A stretch of DNA of 11,626 nt, from contig JAMWCT010000045.1 of the NCBI GenBank assembly GCA_023819525.1, forward strand, positions 1 to 11,626. The letters run 5' to 3'. Shown one piece after another: positions 1-11,626 of the stretch (its first letter is position 1; every line of letters starts with the position of its first letter). Under the pieces are notes generated by a model, which was not told the origin of the DNA, did not search any database, and saw only the letters and a program-made list of their open reading frames with translations. Source of the DNA: Candidatus Omnitrophota bacterium (lineage in GTDB: Bacteria; Omnitrophota; Gorgyraeia; Duberdicusellales; 4484-171). A program made the translations under genes and the position numbers.

Positions 1-288
1 TAGGTTATCATAAATAAATTCAGCTGTATAAGTTAAGTTTGCTAAAATTCCACCTACCTTTGCTGCTGCTAAAAATACATATTGTGGTCTTTCTTTTTTA
101 AAAAACTCTTCTGTATCTTTTTGACTTCTTAAATCTAATTTATAAAACTTTACTCCTAAAGAGGTTGGATTTTTACTAAAATAATTTGAAACGATATTTT
201 TATATTCTTTCTTTCTTAATACCCTTATTAAGGCAGAACCAACTAATCCTGTTCCACCGGCAACAAATATTTTAGAACTTTTTTTCAT
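1..288 (-). CDS. fcl: GDP-L-fucose synthase (GDP-4-keto-6-deoxymannose 3,5-epimerase/4-reductase), N-terminal ~96 codons; gene continues past the left window edge
   Basis: The ORF table omits this because it has no stop inside the window. My own translation of the reverse complement from the ATG at 288..286 gives [96 protein letters not shown]. The Rossmann GxxGxxG N-terminus and the [17 protein letters not shown] motif are typical of Fcl/WcaG. The ATG overlaps the gmd stop codon as ATGA (286..290). Confidence 0.75.
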
Positions 289-1430
289 CAATATTCTTTT
301 GGGAAAAAAGAATATATGTGGTTAGTATAACAGAAGCCTTTTTCTTGACAGATCTTTATCCCTTCGCCTTTTGGCTTAATACCAACTAATTTTAAATCAT
401 AATCAACCATAATTTTTATTAACTCATCAAAAGTAATCTTTGGGCTCCATCCTAATTTTTCCTTTGCTTTTGTTATATCTGCTCTTAAATTATCAGCTTC
501 AGTTGGGCGAAAATATCTTGGGTCAATTTCTACTAAAACAGCCCCTTTCTTTAAATACTTATTTTTTAACTTTAAATCCTTAACTATGCCTTTTTGATTA
601 ACTCCTTTACCTTCCCAACCTATTTTTATACCCACATAATAAAAAGCTTTTTCTAAAAATTCTCTTACAGAATGGCTTTTGCCTGTTCCAATTACAAAAT
701 CTTCCGCCTCTTCTTGTTGTAAAATTCTCCACATCGCCTCCACATATTCAGGTGCAAAACCCCAGTCTCTTTTTGCATCTAAATTTCCTAAATAAATTTT
801 TTTTTGTTTCCCTATTAATATTGAAGCAATGGCCCTTGTTATTTTTCTAGTAACAAAAGTTTCTCCTCTTCTGGGGCTCTCATGGTTAAAAAGTATTCCG
901 TTAGAGGCAAATAAATTATAAGCTTCTCTATAATTTACAGTGCTCCAATAAGAATAAACTTTTGAAGCTGCATAAGGACTTCTTGGATAAAATGGGGTTT
1001 TTTCATTTTGTGGCGCAGGAGCATTCCCAAACATTTCTGAAGATGCTGCATTATAAAATTTAATATTTTTGCCTAACTTCCTTATCGCTTCTAAAATTCT
1101 AATTGTACCAAGGCCGGTGATATCCCCTGTATATTCAGGGATATCAAAACTTACTCTTACATGAGACTGTGCCCCTAAATGATAAATTTCATCAGGCTTT
1201 ATACTATAAATTATATTAGTCAATTGTCCTGAATCAGCTAGGTCTCCATAATAAAGAAATAATTTTGCTCCCTTACTATGTGGGTCTATATAAATATGCT
1301 CAATCCTTTGAGTGTTAAAAGTGCTAGCGCGTCTTATCAAACCAAAAACTTTATAACCTTTTGAAAGCAAAAACTCAGCTAAATATGAACCGTCTTGACC
1401 AGTTATACCTGTAATTAGTGCTTTCTTCAT
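288..1430 (-). CDS. gmd: GDP-mannose 4,6-dehydratase
   Basis: 380 aa. It begins [37 protein letters not shown] and carries the short-chain dehydrogenase (SDR)-family extended catalytic residues (S..YAASK). It is collinear with Gmd over its full length, and the stop TGA overlaps the fcl start. Confidence 0.95.
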
Positions 1431-1457
1431 TTTTTAAAAAACAAAGCTTCGCCCTCT

Positions 1458-1478
1458 CAGTCACATTGACTGGTTTTT
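1458..1478 (-). promoter_or_regulatory. Perfect 6-bp stem / 3-nt loop hairpin (cagtca-cat-tgactg) followed on the plus strand by gttttt; it lies in the 107-nt leader between the NusG-paralog gene and gmd
   Basis: Read directly from the sequence. The arms are exact reverse complements, and this is the only GC-enriched structured element in this leader. Its function is unknown. On the mRNA (minus) strand the hairpin is preceded by an A-run, not followed by a U-run, so it is not a canonical terminator in the sense direction. Confidence 0.3.
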
Positions 1479-1537
1479 GAAAATAAACAATTTGTTTTAA
1501 TATGTTGCACTAACTAAAAAACTGTAAATATACTAAT

Positions 1538-2044
1538 TTAAGCTATCTCCACGCAATCAACATCTACAACGCACTGCACCGATGAACCAATAGCATCAAT
1601 TGATACAACAAGTCTTGTATTTTTATTTCTTTTTTCTACAATAAAACCTTCAACTCCTTTTAATGGCCCTCTTTTAATTATAACCCTCTCACCTATTTTT
1701 AGGTATGGGTAAGGTTCTAATCTAATTTGATTTTCTACTAAAATTTTTAAAGAATTTATCACACTATCTTGCACAGGAATATATTGGTCAAAAAAATGAA
1801 CTACCTCTACAACCCCTTTTTGTTTTAAAATTTGTATTTTATTCTTTAACGCAAATTTTGCAAAACAGTAACCTTTAAAAAGAGGCTCCTCGACAATTTT
1901 TATTCTATCTGACCAGCGTCTTTTAAATGTTAATTTTGGTGTGAATGCTTCTATTCCTTTTCTTAAAAACTCTTTCTCCACAAATTTTTCATGTCTTGGT
2001 TTAGTATACAAGGCATACCAATTTAAAACATCTAATTGGTTCAT
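1538..2044 (-). CDS. Specialised NusG-paralog transcription antiterminator (UpxY/LoaP/RfaH-like: NGN domain plus KOW domain)
   Basis: 168 aa. The N-terminal WYALYTKPRHEKFVEKEFLRKGIEAF.P matches the NusG N-terminal (NGN) domain. The C-terminal IGERVIIKRGPLKGVEGFIVE....RLVVSID matches a KOW motif. Its size and its position at the head of a nucleotide-sugar operon are typical of polysaccharide-locus NusG paralogs. Confidence 0.8.
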   Translation of the reverse strand: MNQLDVLNWYALYTKPRHEKFVEKEFLRKGIEAFTPKLTFKRRWSDRIKIVEEPLFKGYCFAKFALKNKIQILKQKGVVEVVHFFDQYIPVQDSVINSLKILVENQIRLEPYPYLKIGERVIIKRGPLKGVEGFIVEKRNKNTRLVVSIDAIGSSVQCVVDVDCVEIA

Positions 2045-2064
2045 AATAGTTTTTAAAAAAGAGT

Positions 2065-2286
2065 TTATTTTTTTTGAATTTTATTATTTATCCTGTTTAA
2101 AATCCAGGCATCTAATAAATCTTTCTTCAGTCGCCAAAGACCACCAATTCTAAAAGAAGGAATTTCGCCCTTTTTAATTAACCTATATAAAGTGATTAGA
2201 TGTATACCTAAATATTTTGCAGCTTCTTTTGTGGTCATAATTTGACTTCTTGAAGATTTCATTTTTTTTATACCCTCTCCTTCCAT
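2065..2286 (-). CDS. Small helix-turn-helix DNA-binding protein, excisionase/AlpA/MerR-superfamily type
   Basis: MTTKEAAKYLGIHLITLYRLIKKGEIPSFRIGGLWRLKKDLLDAWI is the classic excisionase-family HTH signature. The ORF is open from 2313, but the ATG at 2286 sits 4 nt after a perfect AGGAGG (2291..2296 on the minus strand), so I use that as the start. The gene ends 20 nt before the NusG-paralog start. Confidence 0.7.
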   Translation of the reverse strand: MEGEGIKKMKSSRSQIMTTKEAAKYLGIHLITLYRLIKKGEIPSFRIGGLWRLKKDLLDAWILNRINNKIQKK

Positions 2287-2386
2287 AAAACCTCCTATTA
2301 TAAGGAATATCATATTTTTTAAAAAAAATCAATAAAATAATAAAAAATTATTTTTTTGTTAAAATTGCTAAAAATTGATTAAAAAA

Positions 2387-3772
2387 TTAATTTTTTTGCG
2401 AAAGCAAGCTAAATGTTATAAGAAAAATCGCTGAGGCAAGAAATCCAAGAAGATTATGAGGGTAATTTGATGGGCTAAAAGTTTTTAAAATTATCCAAAA
2501 AAGCACTCCTCCAATCGCTGCGCCTGTTGCACCAAAACTATTAGCTTTTTTCCAATATACACCTGCTATCAAAGGTGCAACTACTCCTACTAAAAGTATC
2601 CCCCACGCCTCTAAACAAAGTTGGTATATGTTTTTAAAATAAATAGCCAAAACTAAAGAAAGGATACATAAAAAAACAACACTTAATTTACAACTATTCA
2701 ATTTAAATCTCTCACTTGCTTTTGGCAATATTAAAGGAACAATATTATGCCCAATAATGCTGGCTGGTGCTAAAAGTGCACTATCAGCGCTACTCATAAT
2801 TGCTGAAAGAAGCGCACCAACCATTAAAGCCATAAAAAGTGGTGATAGATAACGTAAAGAAAGTTCTATGAGGATATTTTTTTCACCGATTTCATTAAAA
2901 ACAATTCTGCCAAAAATCCCTAAAAAAACAGGAATTAATCCAACACTTACATAAAGAAAACCTGCTATTATAGAAGACCATCTTGCAATTTTTGGGCTTT
3001 TAGAAGCCATAATTCTTGCAAAAAGATCTTGTGCTGGAAGTGAACCTAACCCAACAATTATCCAAGCTTGAATATAATTTAACCAATCTAGAAAAGATTT
3101 ACTTTTCGGATAAAAATAAAAAAATTCTTTACTAATTTTTGCTTTTGCAATATTTAACCCACCTATATCTTTTATAAAAATAGGTAAAAGTATAACTAAT
3201 CCACAAATTAGAATTAATCCCTGAAATAAATCTGTTAGTGTATCTGCCCACATACCACCTGCATAAGTATAAACTATGACTACTATTGTAGAGATCATAA
3301 TAGAGTTTATAAGAGGTAATCCTGTTAAAGAATTTAGAATATAACCAAAAGCCAAAAGTTGCGCTCCTATCCAACCCAAATATACTGGTATATAAATGAT
3401 ACTTAAAAATGCTGCAACTTTTTTGCTATAACGAAATTGAAAATAGTCTATTATAGTTTGAATATTTAAACTTCTAAGATATCTTGCAAAAAATAAGCCT
3501 GAAATAATAAGACATAACCCTGCGCCAAAAGGATCAGCAATTACCCCTAATATTCCTTTTTCGTAAGCCGTCGCTGATGACCCCATACAAGTTTCTGCGC
3601 CAAACCAAGTGGCAAATAATGTCCCTATAGATAAAAACCAACCAAGTCTTCCGCCGGCTATAATGTAGTCTTTAGTATTTTTTATTTTTTTACTTGCAAA
3701 ATATCCAATAAATAGCATTACTATCATATAAAAGATTACACCCAAAATTATATAAATCTGTTTTTGTTCCAT
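2387..3772 (-). CDS. Sodium:solute symporter family (SSF; PutP/PanF-like) transporter, substrate unknown
   Basis: 461 aa and highly hydrophobic, with about 12-13 predicted TM segments. The N-terminal region Y..AGR.LG.F....TL.ATWFGAE...G....AY..G is the SSF signature region. The start lies 9 nt after the stop of the upstream metalloprotease gene. Confidence 0.88.
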   Translation of the reverse strand: MEQKQIYIILGVIFYMIVMLFIGYFASKKIKNTKDYIIAGGRLGWFLSIGTLFATWFGAETCMGSSATAYEKGILGVIADPFGAGLCLIISGLFFARYLRSLNIQTIIDYFQFRYSKKVAAFLSIIYIPVYLGWIGAQLLAFGYILNSLTGLPLINSIMISTIVVIVYTYAGGMWADTLTDLFQGLILICGLVILLPIFIKDIGGLNIAKAKISKEFFYFYPKSKSFLDWLNYIQAWIIVGLGSLPAQDLFARIMASKSPKIARWSSIIAGFLYVSVGLIPVFLGIFGRIVFNEIGEKNILIELSLRYLSPLFMALMVGALLSAIMSSADSALLAPASIIGHNIVPLILPKASERFKLNSCKLSVVFLCILSLVLAIYFKNIYQLCLEAWGILLVGVVAPLIAGVYWKKANSFGATGAAIGGVLFWIILKTFSPSNYPHNLLGFLASAIFLITFSLLSQKN

Positions 3773-3781
3773 TTCGTTTGA

Positions 3782-4330
3782 TTAAAAACCTAAAATTTTA
3801 ATACAATTGTTACAAAAATGATAATCTTTTCTATCTGTATCCAAAAGAGAATTAGAAAAATGCATTACGCATTTAGGGTTAGAACAATGATTTAAACCAA
3901 AAAGATGACCTATTTCATGGACCGCCTCTTTAAGTGCACGTTTTAAAAAAAGTTCTCTGTCTTCTTCTAAACCATAATACGATTGGCGCAATCTAGTAAT
4001 AGAAATAATACAAACACCTTTTTTTGGTTCTGCTTCGCCAAAGACAAAATTTAATCCTTCTGCATACAGGTCTTTATCGATGATTGCTAAAATTTTTTGA
4101 TTTTCTTTAGGGGTTTGGAGGGCATTTAAGATAAGCAAAGCAAGATATTGATCTCTCATTTGAGCATACGCATATCGAGGTATATCATATGAACCACCAA
4201 TATTAACTTTTGTAGAAAAAATCTCTTCTAAATTTTTGCTTAAGTAATTTAAAACTGCTTCTTCTATATTGCCAAAAGTAATAATTTCTAAAGACATTTT
4301 CTCTAATGCATAAACTTGATAGATATTCAA
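3782..4330 (-). CDS. amzA: Archaemetzincin-like zinc metallopeptidase (peptidase M54 family)
   Basis: HEIGHLFGLNHC-SNPKC-VM-(17 aa)-CNNC matches the archaemetzincin consensus HExxHxxGxxHCx4CxMx17CxxC. The start is uncertain: alternative ATGs at 4330 and 4297 both lack a strong SD. Confidence 0.8.
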   Translation of the reverse strand: MNIYQVYALEKMSLEIITFGNIEEAVLNYLSKNLEEIFSTKVNIGGSYDIPRYAYAQMRDQYLALLILNALQTPKENQKILAIIDKDLYAEGLNFVFGEAEPKKGVCIISITRLRQSYYGLEEDRELFLKRALKEAVHEIGHLFGLNHCSNPKCVMHFSNSLLDTDRKDYHFCNNCIKILGF

Positions 4331-5203: not shown

Positions 5204-5914
5204 TTACAGGGTTTTAGCCAAAAGGCTAAGTCTTTGAAGAACCCCTATTAAGTTCTCTTGCTGTAGATCTCTTCTTAAAACACAATTTTCTTTTTTGATT
5301 ATAATCTTCTTACCATCTATAATAATAGCATTAAATCCATTATTAAACAACTCTCTTATTGTATTTTTTATACTCATATTGTTAAGATAAAACATTACTT
5401 CTGTTGGCTTATTTGAAAATATTAAAAATTCTCTATCAAACATTTCATCAGTGGTCTTTACTCTATTGAGAATGCCAAATTTTTTACCAAGATCAAGTAA
5501 AAAATAAATAGACTCTTTATAAATACTCAATCTAAAAAAAGAATTTTTAAATAAAGAAATTATTAAATAAAGTGGAGTAGTGTTGCTACCGGCTACAAGC
5601 GAAATAGAAAATTTAAGTCCTTGATATTCTCCAATAAAGGTTGGAGTAAAGTAATATTTAGAAACAGTGCCATTTAGGAAAGTTGATAATTCTTTTAGCG
5701 CATCTATTTTCTTTTTACTAGAATAAAAAATAAGTACAAGTATAAGTATTATAATTATAGGCGAAATTATTATATATATGATATTTTCACTCATAAAATC
5801 TGTTTTTGATTTTTTAAAATACTTACCTGTGTTTTCTTTAAACAAATATATTATACTACAAAACCTAAAAAAAATCAGTTTTTTAAAAATTTTGTATAAG
5901 AGCACTAAAGTCAA
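5204..5914 (-). CDS. Hypothetical single-pass membrane protein immediately upstream of, and probably co-transcribed with, the stomatin gene
   Basis: The ORF is open over 236 codons in AT-rich DNA. A strongly hydrophobic segment, IIYIIISPIIIILILVLIFY, is followed by a ~170 aa soluble domain. I recognise no family. The true start may be the internal Met at 5794 (MSENIIY..). The gap to the stomatin gene is 38 nt. Confidence 0.5.
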   Translation of the reverse strand: MTLVLLYKIFKKLIFFRFCSIIYLFKENTGKYFKKSKTDFMSENIIYIIISPIIIILILVLIFYSSKKKIDALKELSTFLNGTVSKYYFTPTFIGEYQGLKFSISLVAGSNTTPLYLIISLFKNSFFRLSIYKESIYFLLDLGKKFGILNRVKTTDEMFDREFLIFSNKPTEVMFYLNNMSIKNTIRELFNNGFNAIIIDGKKIIIKKENCVLRRDLQQENLIGVLQRLSLLAKTL

Positions 5915-7395: not shown

Positions 7396-8607
7396 CTATA
7401 AATAGATTATATCGTCTTTATAAAACAAAGAAAGAAATAGTAACATATAATCTCTTAAGTGCCGCGTAATGAGAAAGTTATTTCGGATATGTTCCCTGCC
7501 ATTTTGGCCTAATTTTTTAGCATATTCTGGGCTATTTAAAAATTGTTTTAATGCAAATGCTGCGCCTTCAATAGACCGGCATAATAGCCCCGAATATTTA
7601 TGCTTTATCTGCAAAGGTATGCCACCTACATTAGAGGCAACTACTGGTTTTGCCTTCCAGAGGGATTCTGTAACAGTTAAACCAAAACCTTCCTTTAGAG
7701 ATTTTTGAATAATTATTGTTGAGGCGCGCTGTAATGCATTCACTTCTATATCATTATGTGGTAGAAGAATAACGTGAATGTCTTTATCTTGTTTTGCTTT
7801 TTCTTTTACTTCTTCAAAAACTTTTAAGCCTTCTGGATCATCAGCGGCTGTTCCCCCGGCTAAAATGAGTTGACAATCAATATATTTTTTTACAAGTAAA
7901 TAAGCATCAATCACGCCTATCGGATCTTTTAAGCGATCAAAACGAGAAATTTGGGTAATAATAGGTTTATCTTTTGAAATATTATATTTTTTTAGGACAC
8001 TATCTATAATATTCTGGGGCAATTCTTTATTTTTGTCACTTAAAGGATCAATGGAAGGTGAGATTAGAAATTGCCTAATCGGAAATCTGTGTGAGAAAGC
8101 CGGTGCAGAAAACACTGCTGCATCGTATTTGGTTATAAAATCCATAAGAAATCCAAAAATTCTTTCATTAGGAGTAGAGAGATCAATGTGACAACGCCAA
8201 ATCCATAGATTATTAGATTTTTTCTTTACAAGAACAATTGGTTGGGGATCATGAATAAAAACGATATCTCCATAGATATTTATCTCTTCGAGATTACGAA
8301 GGCTATTCTCCATAAATATATCAAAATCTCGCTGAGTAATTTCTTGTGGTTTCCCATGCAATGCATTATGAAACTTTTTAGTCACCTCAAAAAAATCTTC
8401 TCCACCTTTTATGATATCCCATCTTGCATCCACCCCAACTTCTTTTAATAGAGGAACCATGCGATTTAATATCTCGGCAACCCCACCCCCAACTGAAGTA
8501 GAATTAATATTTTGAATTATCTTACCTTTTAGTTTTTTTGCAATTAATCTCAGGTCATCAATTATAGATTGCCCAACAATAGGAATATAGTCTTCTATTT
8601 TTATCAT
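7396..8607 (-). CDS. treT: TreT-type trehalose glycosyltransferring synthase (GT4; NDP-glucose + glucose <-> trehalose)
   Basis: 403 aa. Against the Pyrococcus/Thermococcus TreT sequences I recall, it shares motifs along its whole length: NSTSVGGGVAEIL, VFIHDPQP, LWIWRCHIDLS.PN, SPSIDPLSDKN.EL, KPIITQISRFD, AGG.A.DDPEG, and EGFGLTVTESLWK.KPVVASNVGGIPLQI. The ATG overlaps the stop of the upstream gene as ATGA (8604..8607). Confidence 0.85.
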   Translation of the reverse strand: MIKIEDYIPIVGQSIIDDLRLIAKKLKGKIIQNINSTSVGGGVAEILNRMVPLLKEVGVDARWDIIKGGEDFFEVTKKFHNALHGKPQEITQRDFDIFMENSLRNLEEINIYGDIVFIHDPQPIVLVKKKSNNLWIWRCHIDLSTPNERIFGFLMDFITKYDAAVFSAPAFSHRFPIRQFLISPSIDPLSDKNKELPQNIIDSVLKKYNISKDKPIITQISRFDRLKDPIGVIDAYLLVKKYIDCQLILAGGTAADDPEGLKVFEEVKEKAKQDKDIHVILLPHNDIEVNALQRASTIIIQKSLKEGFGLTVTESLWKAKPVVASNVGGIPLQIKHKYSGLLCRSIEGAAFALKQFLNSPEYAKKLGQNGREHIRNNFLITRHLRDYMLLFLSLFYKDDIIYL

Positions 8608-9278
8608 ATGCTACTAATTCTATTTTCAATTATTTTTACTAAGGTTTTACGTAGATCTTCTAAGGTATAGGTGTAAGGGTCAAACCTTGAGATTTCTCTA
8701 GCTAATTCTTCATCAGAAAGAGAACTTTCTATCCAGTTAGAAAAATCATTGGTATTTTTTTCTAGTCTTAAGCGCGCTTCAAAAACATGAAAATATATAG
8801 AATCTATAGTTATCTTTTTTAAGATTTCCACGAATTCTTTTAAGTCATATGCAATAAAATTTGTGGGTAAAATAAAACTTATCGATTTCATAAAATGGAA
8901 TTCTTCGCCTTCTCTTGCAAAACTTAATTTAGCTAATGGATTTTCTTTTAAATAATTTTCTATTGTTTGGATTATTTTTTCTCTAAGGCTATGTATATTA
9001 GAAAATTGAATTGTATCAATACTGGCCAATTTTTCTGCCAATTCATCTTCTCCTAATACTTCTCTTACCCAATAGGCAAAATCATTGGGTGGTTCAGGAG
9101 AAAGATATTGGTGTTGTTGCAAGAATCTATGTGTGTGATGATAGATACAAGAACCAGACACTTTTTTTAGAAGTTCTAAAAGCTGCAATAAATTAGAAGC
9201 CTTAAAACCGGTCAACTCGGTTAAATGTATTCGCGTATAAAACCTAAATGGTGTTTTTGCTTTTTTTAATTCTGCCAT
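8604..9278 (-). CDS. Uncharacterised ~224-aa protein built from an internal tandem duplication, embedded in the trehalose operon
   Basis: The ORF-table start at 9296 is a TTG. The first ATG (9278..9276, MAELKKAKTPF..) lies 4 nt after the OtsB stop. The two halves align clearly: LLELLKKVSGSCIYHHTHRF with FVEILKKITIDSIYFHVFEAR; NDFAYWVREVLGEDELAEKLASID with NDFSNWIESSLSDEELAREISRFD; LREKIIQTIENYL with LRKTLVKIIENRI. I recognise no family. Confidence 0.7.
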   Translation of the reverse strand: MAELKKAKTPFRFYTRIHLTELTGFKASNLLQLLELLKKVSGSCIYHHTHRFLQQHQYLSPEPPNDFAYWVREVLGEDELAEKLASIDTIQFSNIHSLREKIIQTIENYLKENPLAKLSFAREGEEFHFMKSISFILPTNFIAYDLKEFVEILKKITIDSIYFHVFEARLRLEKNTNDFSNWIESSLSDEELAREISRFDPYTYTLEDLRKTLVKIIENRISSI

Positions 9279-9282
9279 TTTA

Positions 9283-10071
9283 TTATAGTTCTGCAATAAG
9301 CCTTAAAAAATTTCTTACCTCTTGTGTATTTTTTAGATAATACTGCGCTTCTGTTTTTTTAGGTCTTCCAACAAAAATAGTAATTCCTTTATTGTGCAAC
9401 ACCTCAAAAGCATCTTCATCAGTTAAGTCATCGCCAAGATAAATAGGCATAGTTTCTTTTTTTGTAAAACCAGCATTTAATTTCTCAAGTAGCCACAACA
9501 TTGCTCTACCTTTATTCCAGACCACTGGTGGTGTTATTTCAAAGGCTTTTTTTGCTTTTTTAATCTTTATTTTATTTACTTTTTTATAGGCAGCGGTTGC
9601 TTGATGTAGAATTTTTTTCACTTTTGGTATATTGTTTTTTTTAACTAAACGATAATGTAGGCTTAATGATAACCCTTTATCTTCTATAAACGTTCCTTTT
9701 ATTGTAGATAAATTTATTTTTAACTTATTCCTTATATTTTTAAGTATGTGTTTATATTTAGAGGAAGTTGGATACTTAAACTTTATTTTTGGGCCTTCTA
9801 TTTCTAAACCATGATTGGCGGCATAAATAACTCTATTAATACCTATCTTTTTTTTAATATCTTTTAATGCTCTACCACTAATAATGGCTAATTGACAATA
9901 CCTATTCTTTATCAATCTGCGCAATAGTTTTTTAGTTTCTGGCAATAATGTTGCTTCTTGAGGTGTTTTTGCAATAGGTGTTAGTGTGCCATCGTAATCC
10001 AAAAATAAAATTATATTTTTGTTATTAAATTTTTTCTTTAATTTATCCCACTCATCAAAAAAATATTGCAT
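9283..10071 (-). CDS. otsB: Trehalose-6-phosphate phosphatase (HAD superfamily, OtsB type)
   Basis: 262 aa. HAD motif I is LFLDYDGTLTPI, motif II is AIISGR, and the ANHG.E. and KG.A......GDDLTDEDAF motifs are typical of trehalose-phosphate phosphatase (TPP). The start lies 12 nt after the GT20 gene stop. Confidence 0.9.
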   Translation of the reverse strand: MQYFFDEWDKLKKKFNNKNIILFLDYDGTLTPIAKTPQEATLLPETKKLLRRLIKNRYCQLAIISGRALKDIKKKIGINRVIYAANHGLEIEGPKIKFKYPTSSKYKHILKNIRNKLKINLSTIKGTFIEDKGLSLSLHYRLVKKNNIPKVKKILHQATAAYKKVNKIKIKKAKKAFEITPPVVWNKGRAMLWLLEKLNAGFTKKETMPIYLGDDLTDEDAFEVLHNKGITIFVGRPKKTEAQYYLKNTQEVRNFLRLIAEL

Positions 10072-10083
10072 AAAACTTTTATG

Positions 10084-11626
10084 CTACATTTTCTTTAAGG
10101 CCGCCAATTCCTCAATAATATTTGCTGCCCAGCGGTAAACATTGTTTTCTATTATAGATTTTCGCATATTCTCCATACGTTTCCTTTTTTCTTCTATAGG
10201 CATTTCAATTGCTAACTTTATGGCATCTGCAAATTCTTCAATGTGATAAGGATTGATCTGTATAGCATCGGTTAACTCCTTCGAGGCCCCTGTAAATTGA
10301 CTTAAAATTAAACTTCCTGATAAATCCTTCTTTGCCGCAACATATTCTTTAGCGACTAAGTTCATCCCGTCATGCAAAGAACTGACGATACAAAAGTGTG
10401 CTAACATATAGTAAGGTTCTATTTTTTCTTGTGAGAAATGCCCTTTAAGATATATTATCGGCTTCCAGTTTTCATCAAGATACTTCCAGTTTTTCTTCTC
10501 GATTAGTTCATCTATTTCTCCTATAAGTTGATGATAGCGCTGGATATGCGTTCGGCTTGGAGCAGCCAATTGGATAAAAACAATTTTTTTCTTATATTTA
10601 GGATATTTTTCTAAAAATCTATCTATAGCCAATATCCTTTCTATTATACCCTTGGTATAATCAATTCTATCTACACCAACACCAACTATTTTATCTTTTA
10701 GGTTAAATTCTTCTTTCAATTTTTCAACCTCTCTTATTGCCTCACTATTAGATTTTATATTATTAATATAGCCATCTATACTTATAGGATAGGCCCGCAC
10801 ATATGTTTCCTTTCCGTGTCTTACTACACTAAATTTTTCTGTATCCACTCTAGATTCAAGAAGTCTATTTGCGGTGTCAAGGAAATTGTTGCAGTGATTT
10901 TGCACATGAAATCCAACAAGATCACTTCCTAACAAACCATTTAATATTTCTTCTTGATAAGGACAAATCAAAAAGTTTTCCGGATTTGGCCAAGGAATAT
11001 GCCAAAATAAAGCAATCGTTGCGTCCGGACGTTTTTCTTTAAGCATTTTTGGAAGCAAAGTAAAGTGATAATCTTGGATAAAAATAAAAGGGCTCTTTAC
11101 TGGTAGTTCTTCCAAAATACTTTCACAAAACTTTTGATTTACCTTTTTATACATCTGCCAATCCTTTTCTCTAAAAATAGGCCTTGTGTGGGCGTTGTGA
11201 CAAAGTGGCCACAAGCCTTCATTTGCAAATCCATAATAGTAACCTTCTTCTTCTTCTTTTGAAAGCCATACTCTTTTTAAGATATATCGGTTGTCTTCTG
11301 GTGGAACACCAAGTTTATTTTTAGAATTGACAAATTTTTTATCAGCATTTCCACTACCATGAGCAATCCAGGTGCCACCACAAGCGCATAAAATAGGGTG
11401 TATAGCAGTAACCACCCCACTTGCAGGTCTAATGCATTTTGGCAAGCCAGTAGTTTCATCTAAAACGTGCATATAAGGTTCTCTGTTTGACACCACAAAG
11501 AAAGCATTGTCTCCTATTTTTGCATGGATAAGGTCTTTTAATTTTTTCTCTGTCCAGATTTCTTCTTCGTGTAAACGCGCCTGGGCTTCATCAGAAATTG
11601 TTCTTCTAGCAACCCTTAAAGACAAT
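10084..11626 (-). CDS. otsA: GT20 alpha,alpha-trehalose-phosphate synthase family enzyme (OtsA-like); the 5' end may continue beyond the window edge
   Basis: At least 513 aa. GT20 core motifs are present: VVSNREPY, GG..IAHGSG, YYYGFANEGLWPLCH, FIQDYHF.LLP, LFWHIPWP, LLG.DLVGFH, GVDRIDYTKGI, and LHDGMNLVAKEYVAA. The first codon at the window edge is TTG (11625..11623), so the true N-terminus is probably outside the window. Confidence 0.88.
   Translation of the reverse strand, partial: LSLRVARRTISDEAQARLHEEEIWTEKKLKDLIHAKIGDNAFFVVSNREPYMHVLDETTGLPKCIRPASGVVTAIHPILCACGGTWIAHGSGNADKKFVNSKNKLGVPPEDNRYILKRVWLSKEEEEGYYYGFANEGLWPLCHNAHTRPIFREKDWQMYKKVNQKFCESILEELPVKSPFIFIQDYHFTLLPKMLKEKRPDATIALFWHIPWPNPENFLICPYQEEILNGLLGSDLVGFHVQNHCNNFLDTANRLLESRVDTEKFSVVRHGKETYVRAYPISIDGYINNIKSNSEAIREVEKLKEEFNLKDKIVGVGVDRIDYTKGIIERILAIDRFLEKYPKYKKKIVFIQLAAPSRTHIQRYHQLIGEIDELIEKKNWKYLDENWKPIIYLKGHFSQEKIEPYYMLAHFCIVSSLHDGMNLVAKEYVAAKKDLSGSLILSQFTGASKELTDAIQINPYHIEEFADAIKLAIEMPIEEKRKRMENMRKSIIENNVYRWAANIIEELAALKKM

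Follow-up and report, generated by a model that had tools for sequence, protein, structure and literature searches.

An excisionase-fold winged-helix protein and a NusG paralog as a candidate two-tier control cassette for surface-glycan operons of Omnitrophota

To our knowledge, recruitment signals have been defined for only a few specialized NusG paralogs, namely RfaH, some UpxY proteins, and LoaP. The ops element recurs inside long operons as well as at their start, and for LoaP an RNA-type recognition of the leader has been proposed. Among small DNA-binding proteins, BldC binds direct repeats head-to-tail and Xis proteins also bind phased direct repeats, such that helically phased direct repeats are the typical sites of head-to-tail binders of this kind. 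The UpxY/UpxZ system of Bacteroides was reportedly characterized by Chatzidaki-Livanis in 2009/2010. Within these bacteria, UpxY is recruited at class-1 opsX sites, where a pause hairpin in the nascent RNA is combined with a hairpin in the non-template DNA bearing 'GCG-AGC stems', as in Escherichia coli ops (Saba et al. 2024, PMC11685472). In addition, one passage of a survey of RfaH describes a cluster, CL4, in which the neighborhood of the NusG paralog is enriched for a helix-turn-helix (HTH) transcription regulator (Wang et al. 2020, PMC7593976). The locus described here lies on contig JAMWCT010000045.1, the 11,626 nt of which constitute an entire contig of a Candidatus Omnitrophota metagenome-assembled genome (MAG) and are referred to below as the window. 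At one end of this window, genes for a small HTH protein and for a NusG paralog of the UpxY family stand directly ahead of genes for GDP-fucose biosynthesis.

Our preferred reading, held with moderate confidence, is that these two genes and their flanking elements form a portable cassette exerting two-tier control over the surface-glycan operons of Omnitrophota, the HTH protein acting at initiation and the NusG paralog at elongation; all functions proposed here are drawn from comparative sequence data. Calls of open reading frames (ORFs) and family matches place the HTH gene, the NusG paralog gene, gmd and fcl on the minus strand at the positions given in the initial annotation. The HTH gene (2065..2286, minus strand) encodes a protein of 73 residues that carries an excisionase-type, BldC/Xis-like winged-helix domain, with matches to Pfam HTH_17 (61.8 bits) and to NCBIfam TIGR01764, 'excisionase family DNA-binding' (67.8 bits; cutoff 28.8). 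While the longest possible ORF reaches 2313, the likely start is the ATG at 2286, because homologues and the NCBI gene call begin there ('ME...'). A Shine-Dalgarno-like hexamer, AGGAGG (2291..2296, minus strand), lies 4 nt ahead of this ATG, and the stop codon (2067..2065) is separated by 20 nt from the ATG of the NusG paralog at 2044; both the hexamer and the gap, read from the sequence, had been correctly described. The NusG paralog (1538..2044, minus strand; 168 residues), composed of NGN and KOW domains, is encoded in cis at the 5' end of the polysaccharide operon as the second gene after the HTH gene. It passes the NCBIfam cutoff for UpxY (NF033644, 117.8 bits against 100) and matches Pfam NusG NGN (57.2 bits), while scoring under the cutoffs for RfaH (TIGR01955 and NF006534, 85.3 vs 144.5 and 64.8 vs 124) and for LoaP (NF033641, 64.4 vs 125). 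Its AlphaFold model (mean predicted local distance difference test score, pLDDT, 85) displays the NGN fold and a KOW domain made of beta-strands. The 355 homologues of this paralog are, where the source is named, nearly all labelled Omnitrophota. Its start codon (2044, minus strand) has no recognizable Shine-Dalgarno sequence and is preceded by an A/T-rich run, unlike the HTH gene with its perfect AGGAGG, and no UpxZ gene is found directly 3' of it, the next gene being gmd, 107 nt on, with no ORF between.

Conservation of the pairing was assessed in 80 loci retrieved with a NusG-paralog profile from contigs representing one genome per species, in which ORFs were called and then searched with family profiles for HTH and NusG, a score of >110 bits being taken as the threshold for a family HTH. 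In 23 of the 80 genome loci as well as in the window, the gene for such a protein immediately precedes that of the NusG paralog and shares its strand, with gaps between the called ORFs ranging from -43 to 173 nt. The HTH-positive loci form two groups, one close (paralog 58-83% identical) and one distant (43-51%); where a taxon is named they belong to Omnitrophota, the others being labelled only 'uncultured Planctomycetia' or 'uncultured bacterium'. Within the set of 80, no family HTH was found beside the paralogs of loci labelled Acidobacteriota, NC10/Methylomirabilota, Calditrichia, or Thermodesulfovibrionia. The closest relative, L161, in which the paralog is 83% identical, retains the order symporter, HTH, NusG, and ops-like site ahead of unrelated downstream genes; the cassette, rather than the GDP-fucose genes, is the conserved unit. 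The proposal that the module heads a GDP-fucose operon holds for the window, where gmd and fcl follow, but not for its relatives, which carry the cassette before varied glycan gene sets. When the HTH profile was in turn searched against metagenome contigs, 10 family-level matches were returned, and seven of the nine that could be evaluated adjoin a NusG paralog. Neighboring genes were surveyed by a Pfam scan of 240 proteins (136 upstream and 104 downstream), from which the 25 most frequent families were inspected: downstream proteins include sugar dehydratases/epimerases, glycosyltransferases, ABC transporters, asparagine synthase, and sugar transferases, while those upstream are of a housekeeping nature (e.g., phosphoribosyltransferase, SpoU and RsmB methylases, CobO).

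The HTH protein of the window shares 47-88% identity with the 25 homologues of its family alignment, and the core RxQIMTPKEAAKYLGxHLxTxYRLxKKxExPxxKxGGQWRFKKDxLDxW is nearly constant, even where the paralog has diverged to ~45% identity. Its AlphaFold model (mean pLDDT 80) is a winged helix of beta-alpha-alpha-beta-beta-alpha topology, and the best Foldseek matches in the PDB are the RdfS excisionase (8dgl), DNA-bound Streptomyces BldC (6ama/6amk), mycobacteriophage Pukovnik Xis (4j2n), and the N-terminal domain of SoxR/MerR proteins, all with probability 1.0; for the BldC chains, the target-normalized TM-scores are 0.74-0.81. As in BldC, the protein is a small winged helix with no effector domain. 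The fold search alone was informative, as a sequence search of the PDB with the HTH-family profile gave no meaningful match.

Consistent with a role for the HTH protein at the promoter is the finding that a short direct repeat accompanies its gene. Of all 7-mers, ATAGCAA and TAGCAAT show the strongest enrichment ahead of the HTH genes, being present in 15 and 14 of 24 regions, respectively, compared with 59 and 45 of 2219 background windows (p ~3e-18). Boxes with at most one mismatch number 51, as against 18.3 in shuffled sequences, and neighboring direct-repeat boxes are separated by exactly 10 bp in 10 cases where 0.09 were expected; loci L018, L026, and L004 each carry three phased boxes. 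A strict box is present in 19/24 HTH-positive and in 3/53 HTH-negative loci (Fisher p = 1e-10), and when only AT-rich upstream regions are considered, in 19/24 and 1/18, respectively (p = 1.6e-6), the lone exception, L013, possessing an HTH copy downstream of the paralog. The box also stands ahead of the HTH gene of L085, which has no NusG partner. In the window, the candidate operator (2355..2380, minus strand) begins 7 nt past the symporter stop codon and comprises three boxes with a phasing of 9-10 bp (AATCAAT, 2380..2374; TAGCAAT, 2370..2364; TAACAAA, 2361..2355), an array that is kept in L161 as TAGCATTttaTAGCAAT inside a nearly identical stretch of 70 nt.

The position of the boxes relative to promoter-like hexamers is best seen in the distant group, in which one box abuts a good -35 hexamer (TAGCAATacTTGACA) followed ~17 nt on by a -10-like hexamer. 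This layout, TAGCAAT-ac-TTGACA with its -10-like hexamer, aligns in 13 distant loci, and L012 and L014 have TAGCAATacTTAACA. The window offers a candidate sigma-70-type promoter, TTAACA-17-TATTTT (2334..2362, minus strand; 9/12 in a consensus scan), which lies 1 nt past the central TAGCAAT; the window here reads TAGCAATtTTAACA-17-TATTTT. The non-coding stretch in which these features reside (2287..2386) looks like a promoter/operator region rather than a transcribed leader. The initial annotation had named 2314..2386, as a 73-nt leader, among the candidate cis targets; the region does hold the phased boxes (2380..2355), while the length of 73 nt had been counted from the longest ORF start (2313), and the distance from the ATG at 2286 is ~100 nt. 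Because phased direct repeats are what head-to-tail binders use, we infer that the HTH protein binds these boxes and controls initiation of its own operon, and the position of a box beside the -35 hexamer in many loci may point to activation.

Several further observations concern the HTH gene and its leader. In L003, L005, L006, L012, and L014, the HTH start codon falls 6-7 nt past the -10-like hexamer, which suggests that these mRNAs are leaderless. In L029-L041, a conserved stretch, TAGA(T/A)TATAAC...GATCAA, is found at the start of the HTH leader, ~10-45 nt past the predicted -10 hexamer (e.g., L037, about 5650-5690). A strong terminator-like palindrome precedes the boxes of L026, and 3 kb upstream of the same cassette is a c-di-GMP-I riboswitch (L026 2636-2764), which scores 63.4 bits against a gathering score of 35. 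Extra HTH copies located 3' of the NusG paralog and ops-like site span L002 7294-7554, L013 3568-3792, L086 813-1040, L087 1883-2008, L088 759-992, and L089 558-791; L002 also shows, beside a masked run of N, the 3' end of another HTH gene upstream, and L037 has an additional copy (3485-3709) 2 kb upstream of its cassette. Two complete cassettes with near-identical promoters (L012 and L014) are carried by a single MAG, BLK3-3.bin.157.

The second conserved component of the cassette is a candidate ops-like loading/pause element (1442..1472, minus strand), the end of which is separated by 12 nt from the gmd ATG. Its first part is a hairpin, CAGTCA-atg-TGACTG (1472..1458, minus strand), and its second a conserved core, GAGAGGGCGAAGC (1458..1446), that contains the mini-hairpin GCGAAGC (1452..1446) and is followed by TTTG; the full form of the motif, GTGACTGAGAGGGCGAAGCTTTG (1464..1442), is conserved in both close and distant groups. 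Within the core, GGCG[AG]AGC is invariant in 41/41 aligned instances, and the window contains two matches to the core, one with 1 mismatch, where 0.03 would be expected. Two strict patterns, type 1 (...GGCGRAGC) and type 2 (...GGACGRAGT), gave 55 matches on the operon strand and 0 on the opposite strand of the 80 loci and the window. A match lies at most 700 nt downstream of the NusG paralog in 44 loci and just upstream of it in seven (six of Acidobacteriota type, together with L020 of Thermodesulfovibrionia), with a copy 472 nt upstream in L019; the 29 loci in which neither strict pattern matched all have divergent paralogs, and every locus with a paralog at least 58% identical to that of the window (27/27) has the motif. 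The ops-like element belongs to the NusG-paralog clade and is also present where the HTH is not. A comparison of homologous loci in search of an ops-like motif had been recommended at the outset, and it has yielded this one, located mostly downstream of the paralog rather than ahead of it.

Evidence that the core forms a structure comes chiefly from its variants. The type-2 form, GGGACGAAGTC, differs by a paired A...T insertion that retains the hairpin, G-GC-GAA-GC-T becoming G-GAC-GAA-GTC-C, with the stem lengthened and the loop unchanged, and this paired insertion provides the best structural evidence for the predicted mini-hairpin. A larger hairpin is often found directly 5' of the core, its 3' arm being the conserved GTGAC/GGGAC, and its pairs vary in a compensatory manner: CAGTCA/TGACTG in the window, CGGTC/GACCG in L004 and L018, and, in other copies, a C-rich arm that pairs with GAGAGGGC and changes from GCCCTC to GCCCGC where the core is GAGCGGGC. 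Moreover, the flanks of the ops-like motif show more structure than do control windows (mean z -1.27 vs -0.10; Mann-Whitney p = 3.5e-6). The gmd leader of the window (1431..1537) had likewise been named as a hairpin-containing candidate target; the hairpin is real and the ops-like motif lies at 1472..1442, yet the 107-nt leader as a whole folds no more stably than shuffled sequence (z = 0.07), and what is informative in it is the conserved motif beside the hairpin.

Searches for known elements in these leaders gave no alternative identity. The canonical E. coli ops was rejected as the element of the window, since its 12-mer (GGCGGTAGnnTG) is absent and the four matches with two mismatches, none of which lies in a leader, are at chance level; the window carries the ops-related motif GGCGAAGC in its place. 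Nothing relevant, JUMPstart included, was matched by Rfam in the window or L031 (E <= 10), nor at the gathering score in 11 related loci. The purine-rich GAGAGGG was also considered as a ribosome-binding site and rejected, given that it lies 20 to 389 nt from the next start codon.

Variants of the element occur in characteristic settings. The type-2 core, GAGAGGGACG(A/G)AGTC, is found at L007 6692, L009 4825, L015 6769, L016 6043, L017 3233, L019 836, L020 1426, L022 2666, L024 842, and L025 6571, all of them loci without an HTH; in several of these a Gmd-like dehydratase directly follows NusG, and in L017 fcl is present too, as in the window. Loci of Acidobacteriota/Terriglobia (L056 5888, L068 5936, L069 5889, L074 5846, L076 5887, and L077 5893) have the motif cccTGTAAGTGAGGGGGCGAAGCT just upstream of NusG, as in Bacteroides, and possess neither an HTH nor a TAGCAAT box. 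Added or displaced copies between genes deeper in the operon (L008 9644, L012 3717, L023 4871, and L047 7010) may be re-loading sites. In L030-L049 and L059, a conserved CCTCGTAGG box is situated 20-30 nt upstream of the core, its C-rich part pairing with GAGGG of the core and its GTAG remaining unpaired in predicted folds, and a larger element of two parts may thus be present in the GC-richer genomes.

Taken together, these features can be arranged into a sequence of events. Transcription would begin at a promoter just downstream of the symporter gene, where the helically phased TAGCAAT direct repeats, linked as they are to the HTH gene, would most likely be bound head-to-tail by the HTH protein, which would set and auto-regulate initiation; in structure, this protein is closest to BldC and Xis, which have no effector domain. 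The HTH gene and then the NusG paralog gene would be co-transcribed, given the 20-nt gap and the lack of terminator-like sites between them. Approximately 80 nt past the paralog stop codon, RNA polymerase would meet the hairpin and then GAGAGGGCGAAGCTTTG and pause, whereupon the non-template strand is expected to form the GCG-A-AGC mini-hairpin and recruit the NusG paralog. Pausing and recruitment are expected by analogy with RfaH/ops and with Bacteroides UpxY/opsX; what is observed is the conservation of the motif, its strand bias, its position, and the paired changes in its stem. The modified polymerase would, as family knowledge suggests, then read through gmd, fcl, and all further genes of the long glycan operon. 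It is likely that transcription runs on from the paralog gene into the operon: in GC-richer relatives the spacer of 41-120 nt past the paralog has, on inspection, no promoter-like sequence, although the corresponding spacer of the window holds a weak promoter-like TTTACA-18-CATATT (1528..1499). Since the loading site lies 3' of the paralog gene, synthesis of this regulator itself would need initiation only, whereas the biosynthetic genes would need both regulators.

Several observations weigh against this reading or against its parts. Many loci have the same ops-like motif and neither HTH nor boxes, including L010, L021, L027, L039, L040, L045, and loci of Acidobacteriota; for the NusG/ops system, the HTH is accessory and not required. 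Conversely, the HTH genes of L084 and L085 have no NusG paralog and head an ABC exporter, accompanied in L084 by an O-antigen-ligase gene, and HTH copies are also found downstream of the ops-like site (L002, L013, L086-L089). Promoter-like matches in the AT-rich window are not above chance (29 vs 20.7 +/- 4.5 expected), and for this reason the putative promoter of the window is a weak assignment drawn only from the alignment across loci; furthermore, close relatives differ in how far the box array lies from the best -35 hexamer. The hairpin upstream of the core is clear in only about one third of instances (z < -1.5 in 35%), and RNAalifold, given 16 leaders aligned with MAFFT, returned the 3-pair mini-hairpin alone and no covariation. 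That program recovers nothing further because the variable hairpins mis-align, and evidence for structure was taken instead from folds of individual sequences and from motif variants. With regard to the paralog, the KOW domain is modelled as a beta-barrel, and the model therefore gives no sign of the RfaH-type auto-inhibition that would make loading strictly dependent on an ops element, although a single predicted state is compatible with fold switching. Finally, the ops-like motif could work as RNA instead of non-template DNA.

This last possibility, that a leader hairpin and single-stranded tail are bound by the KOW domain or another factor, or that the element is a cis-acting attenuator, can draw on the compensatory helices described above, which extend in several copies to GCCCTC/GAGGGC becoming GCCCGC/GCGGGC, on the elevated structure of the flanks, and on a strict strand bias that suits RNA as well as non-template DNA. 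We nevertheless regard it as unlikely: the larger helices are not universal, no Rfam family matches, and the invariant part is a GCGRAGC mini-hairpin of 7-9 nt that would be very short for an RNA-protein site and that agrees with the 'GCG-AGC' DNA hairpin seen in ops and opsX. Nor are the two readings exclusive, as Bacteroides uses an RNA pause hairpin and a DNA hairpin together. A different concern is whether the HTH and NusG proteins are coupled at all, for the HTH protein might be a general regulator of glycan or envelope genes in Omnitrophota that stands beside NusG only since both head operons. Family HTH proteins without a NusG paralog, NusG/ops systems without an HTH, and the near identity of HTH sequence and box at all loci, which leaves no locus specificity, are all in keeping with this view; same-strand adjacency maintained across paralogs of 43-83% identity, and the frequency of that adjacency in the reverse search, make it rather improbable. 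It differs from the cassette reading only in degree, as a shared operon already couples expression.

Were the HTH protein instead to act on the elongation complex, either by binding upstream duplex DNA at the loading site or by acting upon the paralog as a UpxZ-like anti-factor, precedent would exist in the use of upstream duplex DNA in UpxY recognition and in the modulation of UpxY by its small partner UpxZ (Saba et al. 2024, PMC11685472), and the HTH copies right after the ops-like site in L086-L089 would be in keeping with it. Yet the sole DNA motif that tracks with the HTH is at the promoter and not at the ops-like site, the flanks of which are alike with or without the HTH, and the DNA-binding fold of the protein is unrelated to UpxZ; such a role seems very improbable. 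Least credence of all is due to a true excisionase, or recombination directionality factor, serving a mobile element or an invertible promoter like those of Bacteroides capsule loci, despite the fact that the best NCBIfam match is an excisionase domain and that the RdfS and Pukovnik excisionases are among the top structural matches. No integrase or recombinase family occurs on either side among the 25 commonest families of the 240 neighbor proteins, the other genes of the window match no mobile-element family, synteny with housekeeping genes is stable across loci, the non-coding stretch of the window is only ~100 nt long, and no inverted repeats consistently flank the promoter across six loci. 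On these grounds both the excisionase and the invertible-promoter readings were rejected. The initial annotation had favored a dedicated regulator over a mobile-element excisionase and had held that view to be open to refutation by a lack of HTH conservation next to the paralog or by a flanking integrase or prophage; the pairing is kept in 23 of the 80 loci and the window and in L161 as well, the neighborhood is free of such genes to the extent just described, and the view is supported.

A bolder version of the preferred cassette reading, possible but doubtful, would see in the locus the equivalent, in Omnitrophota and with other components, of the capsule switch of Bacteroides: a BldC-like protein polymerizing on phased TAGCAAT repeats would decide which glycan locus is expressed, and a UpxY-like paralog would then load at the ops-like GCGRAGC. 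The HTH protein could in that event cross-talk between loci, for instance in the MAG that holds both L012 and L014, because HTH sequence and box are near-identical between loci. The GCGRAGC mini-hairpin is also present in loci labelled Acidobacteriota and Thermodesulfovibrionia and resembles the ops of E. coli and Bacteroides, and were this version true, it would point to a recruitment code of ancient origin that this clade of NusG paralogs uses across phyla.

The two-tier cassette, whether or not it acts as such a switch, bears on several matters. It supplies a testable candidate recruitment signal, a hairpin followed by GAGAGGGCGRAGC, for a large clade of NusG paralogs in uncultured phyla, and its mini-hairpin, which keeps the stem of E. 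coli ops, bears on the evolution of ops recognition. It also introduces a previously undescribed partner, an excisionase-fold protein as putative chromosomal regulator with a defined candidate operator, and would caution annotators that HTH_17 genes of this type need not signal prophage. Consisting of no more than promoter boxes, two small genes, and a loading site of 30 nt, the cassette is compact and complete in itself, and a heterologous host could thus serve for its testing in place of cultured Omnitrophota.

With regard to the remainder of the window, all ORFs with an assigned function save one lie on the minus strand. In minus-strand order, the genes encode an OtsA-like glycosyltransferase of family GT20, a trehalose phosphatase, a DUF5752 protein, a TreT-like synthase, and a coiled-coil protein, followed by an alpha/beta hydrolase (on the plus strand), a protein of unknown function, an SPFH protein, an archaemetzincin, and a sodium:solute symporter (3772..2387, minus strand), the last standing upstream of the HTH gene, the NusG paralog gene, gmd, and the start of fcl. 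The trehalose set spans 7396-11625 (minus strand), with the DUF5752 gene embedded between those for the phosphatase and the synthase, and the archaemetzincin-family metalloprotease (3782-4330, minus strand; NF033823, 198 bits) adjoins the symporter. Past the ops-like element, gmd, encoding GDP-mannose 4,6-dehydratase (288..1430, minus strand; TIGR01472, 550.7 bits), is the first biosynthetic gene; its start codon (1430) has no recognizable Shine-Dalgarno sequence and is preceded by an A/T-rich run. The 5' part of fcl, encoding GDP-L-fucose synthase (1..288, minus strand; NF047922, 82.6 bits over 96 residues), is truncated at the contig end, and its ATG overlaps the gmd stop codon (ATGA); the identities of both genes are unambiguous.

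Comparison with described systems clarifies what is shared and what is particular to this locus. With excisionases (RdfS, 8dgl; Pukovnik Xis, 4j2n; lambda Xis) the HTH protein shares its fold and its families TIGR01764 and HTH_17 but not, within the survey described above, an integrase, an att site, or a mobile-element context. The protein resembles Streptomyces BldC (6ama, 6amk), one of its top structural matches, in that both are small MerR-like winged helices lacking an effector domain, and its candidate sites are 10-bp-phased direct repeats, comparable to the direct repeats bound by BldC; the two are only 24-26% identical in structural alignment, however, and BldC is a global developmental regulator with no link to a NusG paralog. 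LoaP of Bacillus velezensis is likewise a cis-encoded NusG paralog and acts through a leader hairpin, but it targets polyketide operons, its recognition is reported to be RNA-based, and the paralog of the window scores under its cutoff. A literature search for an excisionase or HTH protein with a NusG paralog yielded only the remark on CL4, in a passage that places this cluster within the RfaH set and names neither the type of HTH nor a cis element (Wang et al. 2020, PMC7593976), and searches combining excisionase, NusG, and polysaccharide returned nothing relevant.

Closer parallels are found in the E. coli and Bacteroides systems. The mini-hairpin has the same stem bases as the ops/JUMPStart element of RfaH (GGCGGTAGCGTG), that is, G-C, C-G, and a G/A pair, and like ops it has the same orientation as the long glycan operons, lies in their leaders, and may be repeated inside them; unlike in the RfaH system, the paralog lies under the RfaH cutoffs, the canonical 12-mer is absent, and the KOW domain is modelled as a beta-barrel rather than in an auto-inhibited helical form. 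As in Bacteroides, a surface-polysaccharide operon is headed by a cis-encoded NusG paralog that passes the UpxY cutoff, a hairpin and a GCG/AGC mini-hairpin occur together in the leader element as in opsX, and a small second regulator is encoded beside the paralog; initiation and elongation would be controlled separately. The differences are that the partner is an upstream DNA-binding HTH protein of the excisionase fold rather than a downstream UpxZ, that the loading site lies 3' of the paralog gene and not 5' as does opsX, that the mini-hairpin loop is a single base (A or G), that no invertible promoter was found in the Omnitrophota loci, and that the host phylum is Omnitrophota. Viewed against these systems, the locus is a variant of the known control of glycan operons by NusG paralogs and not the remnant of a mobile element.

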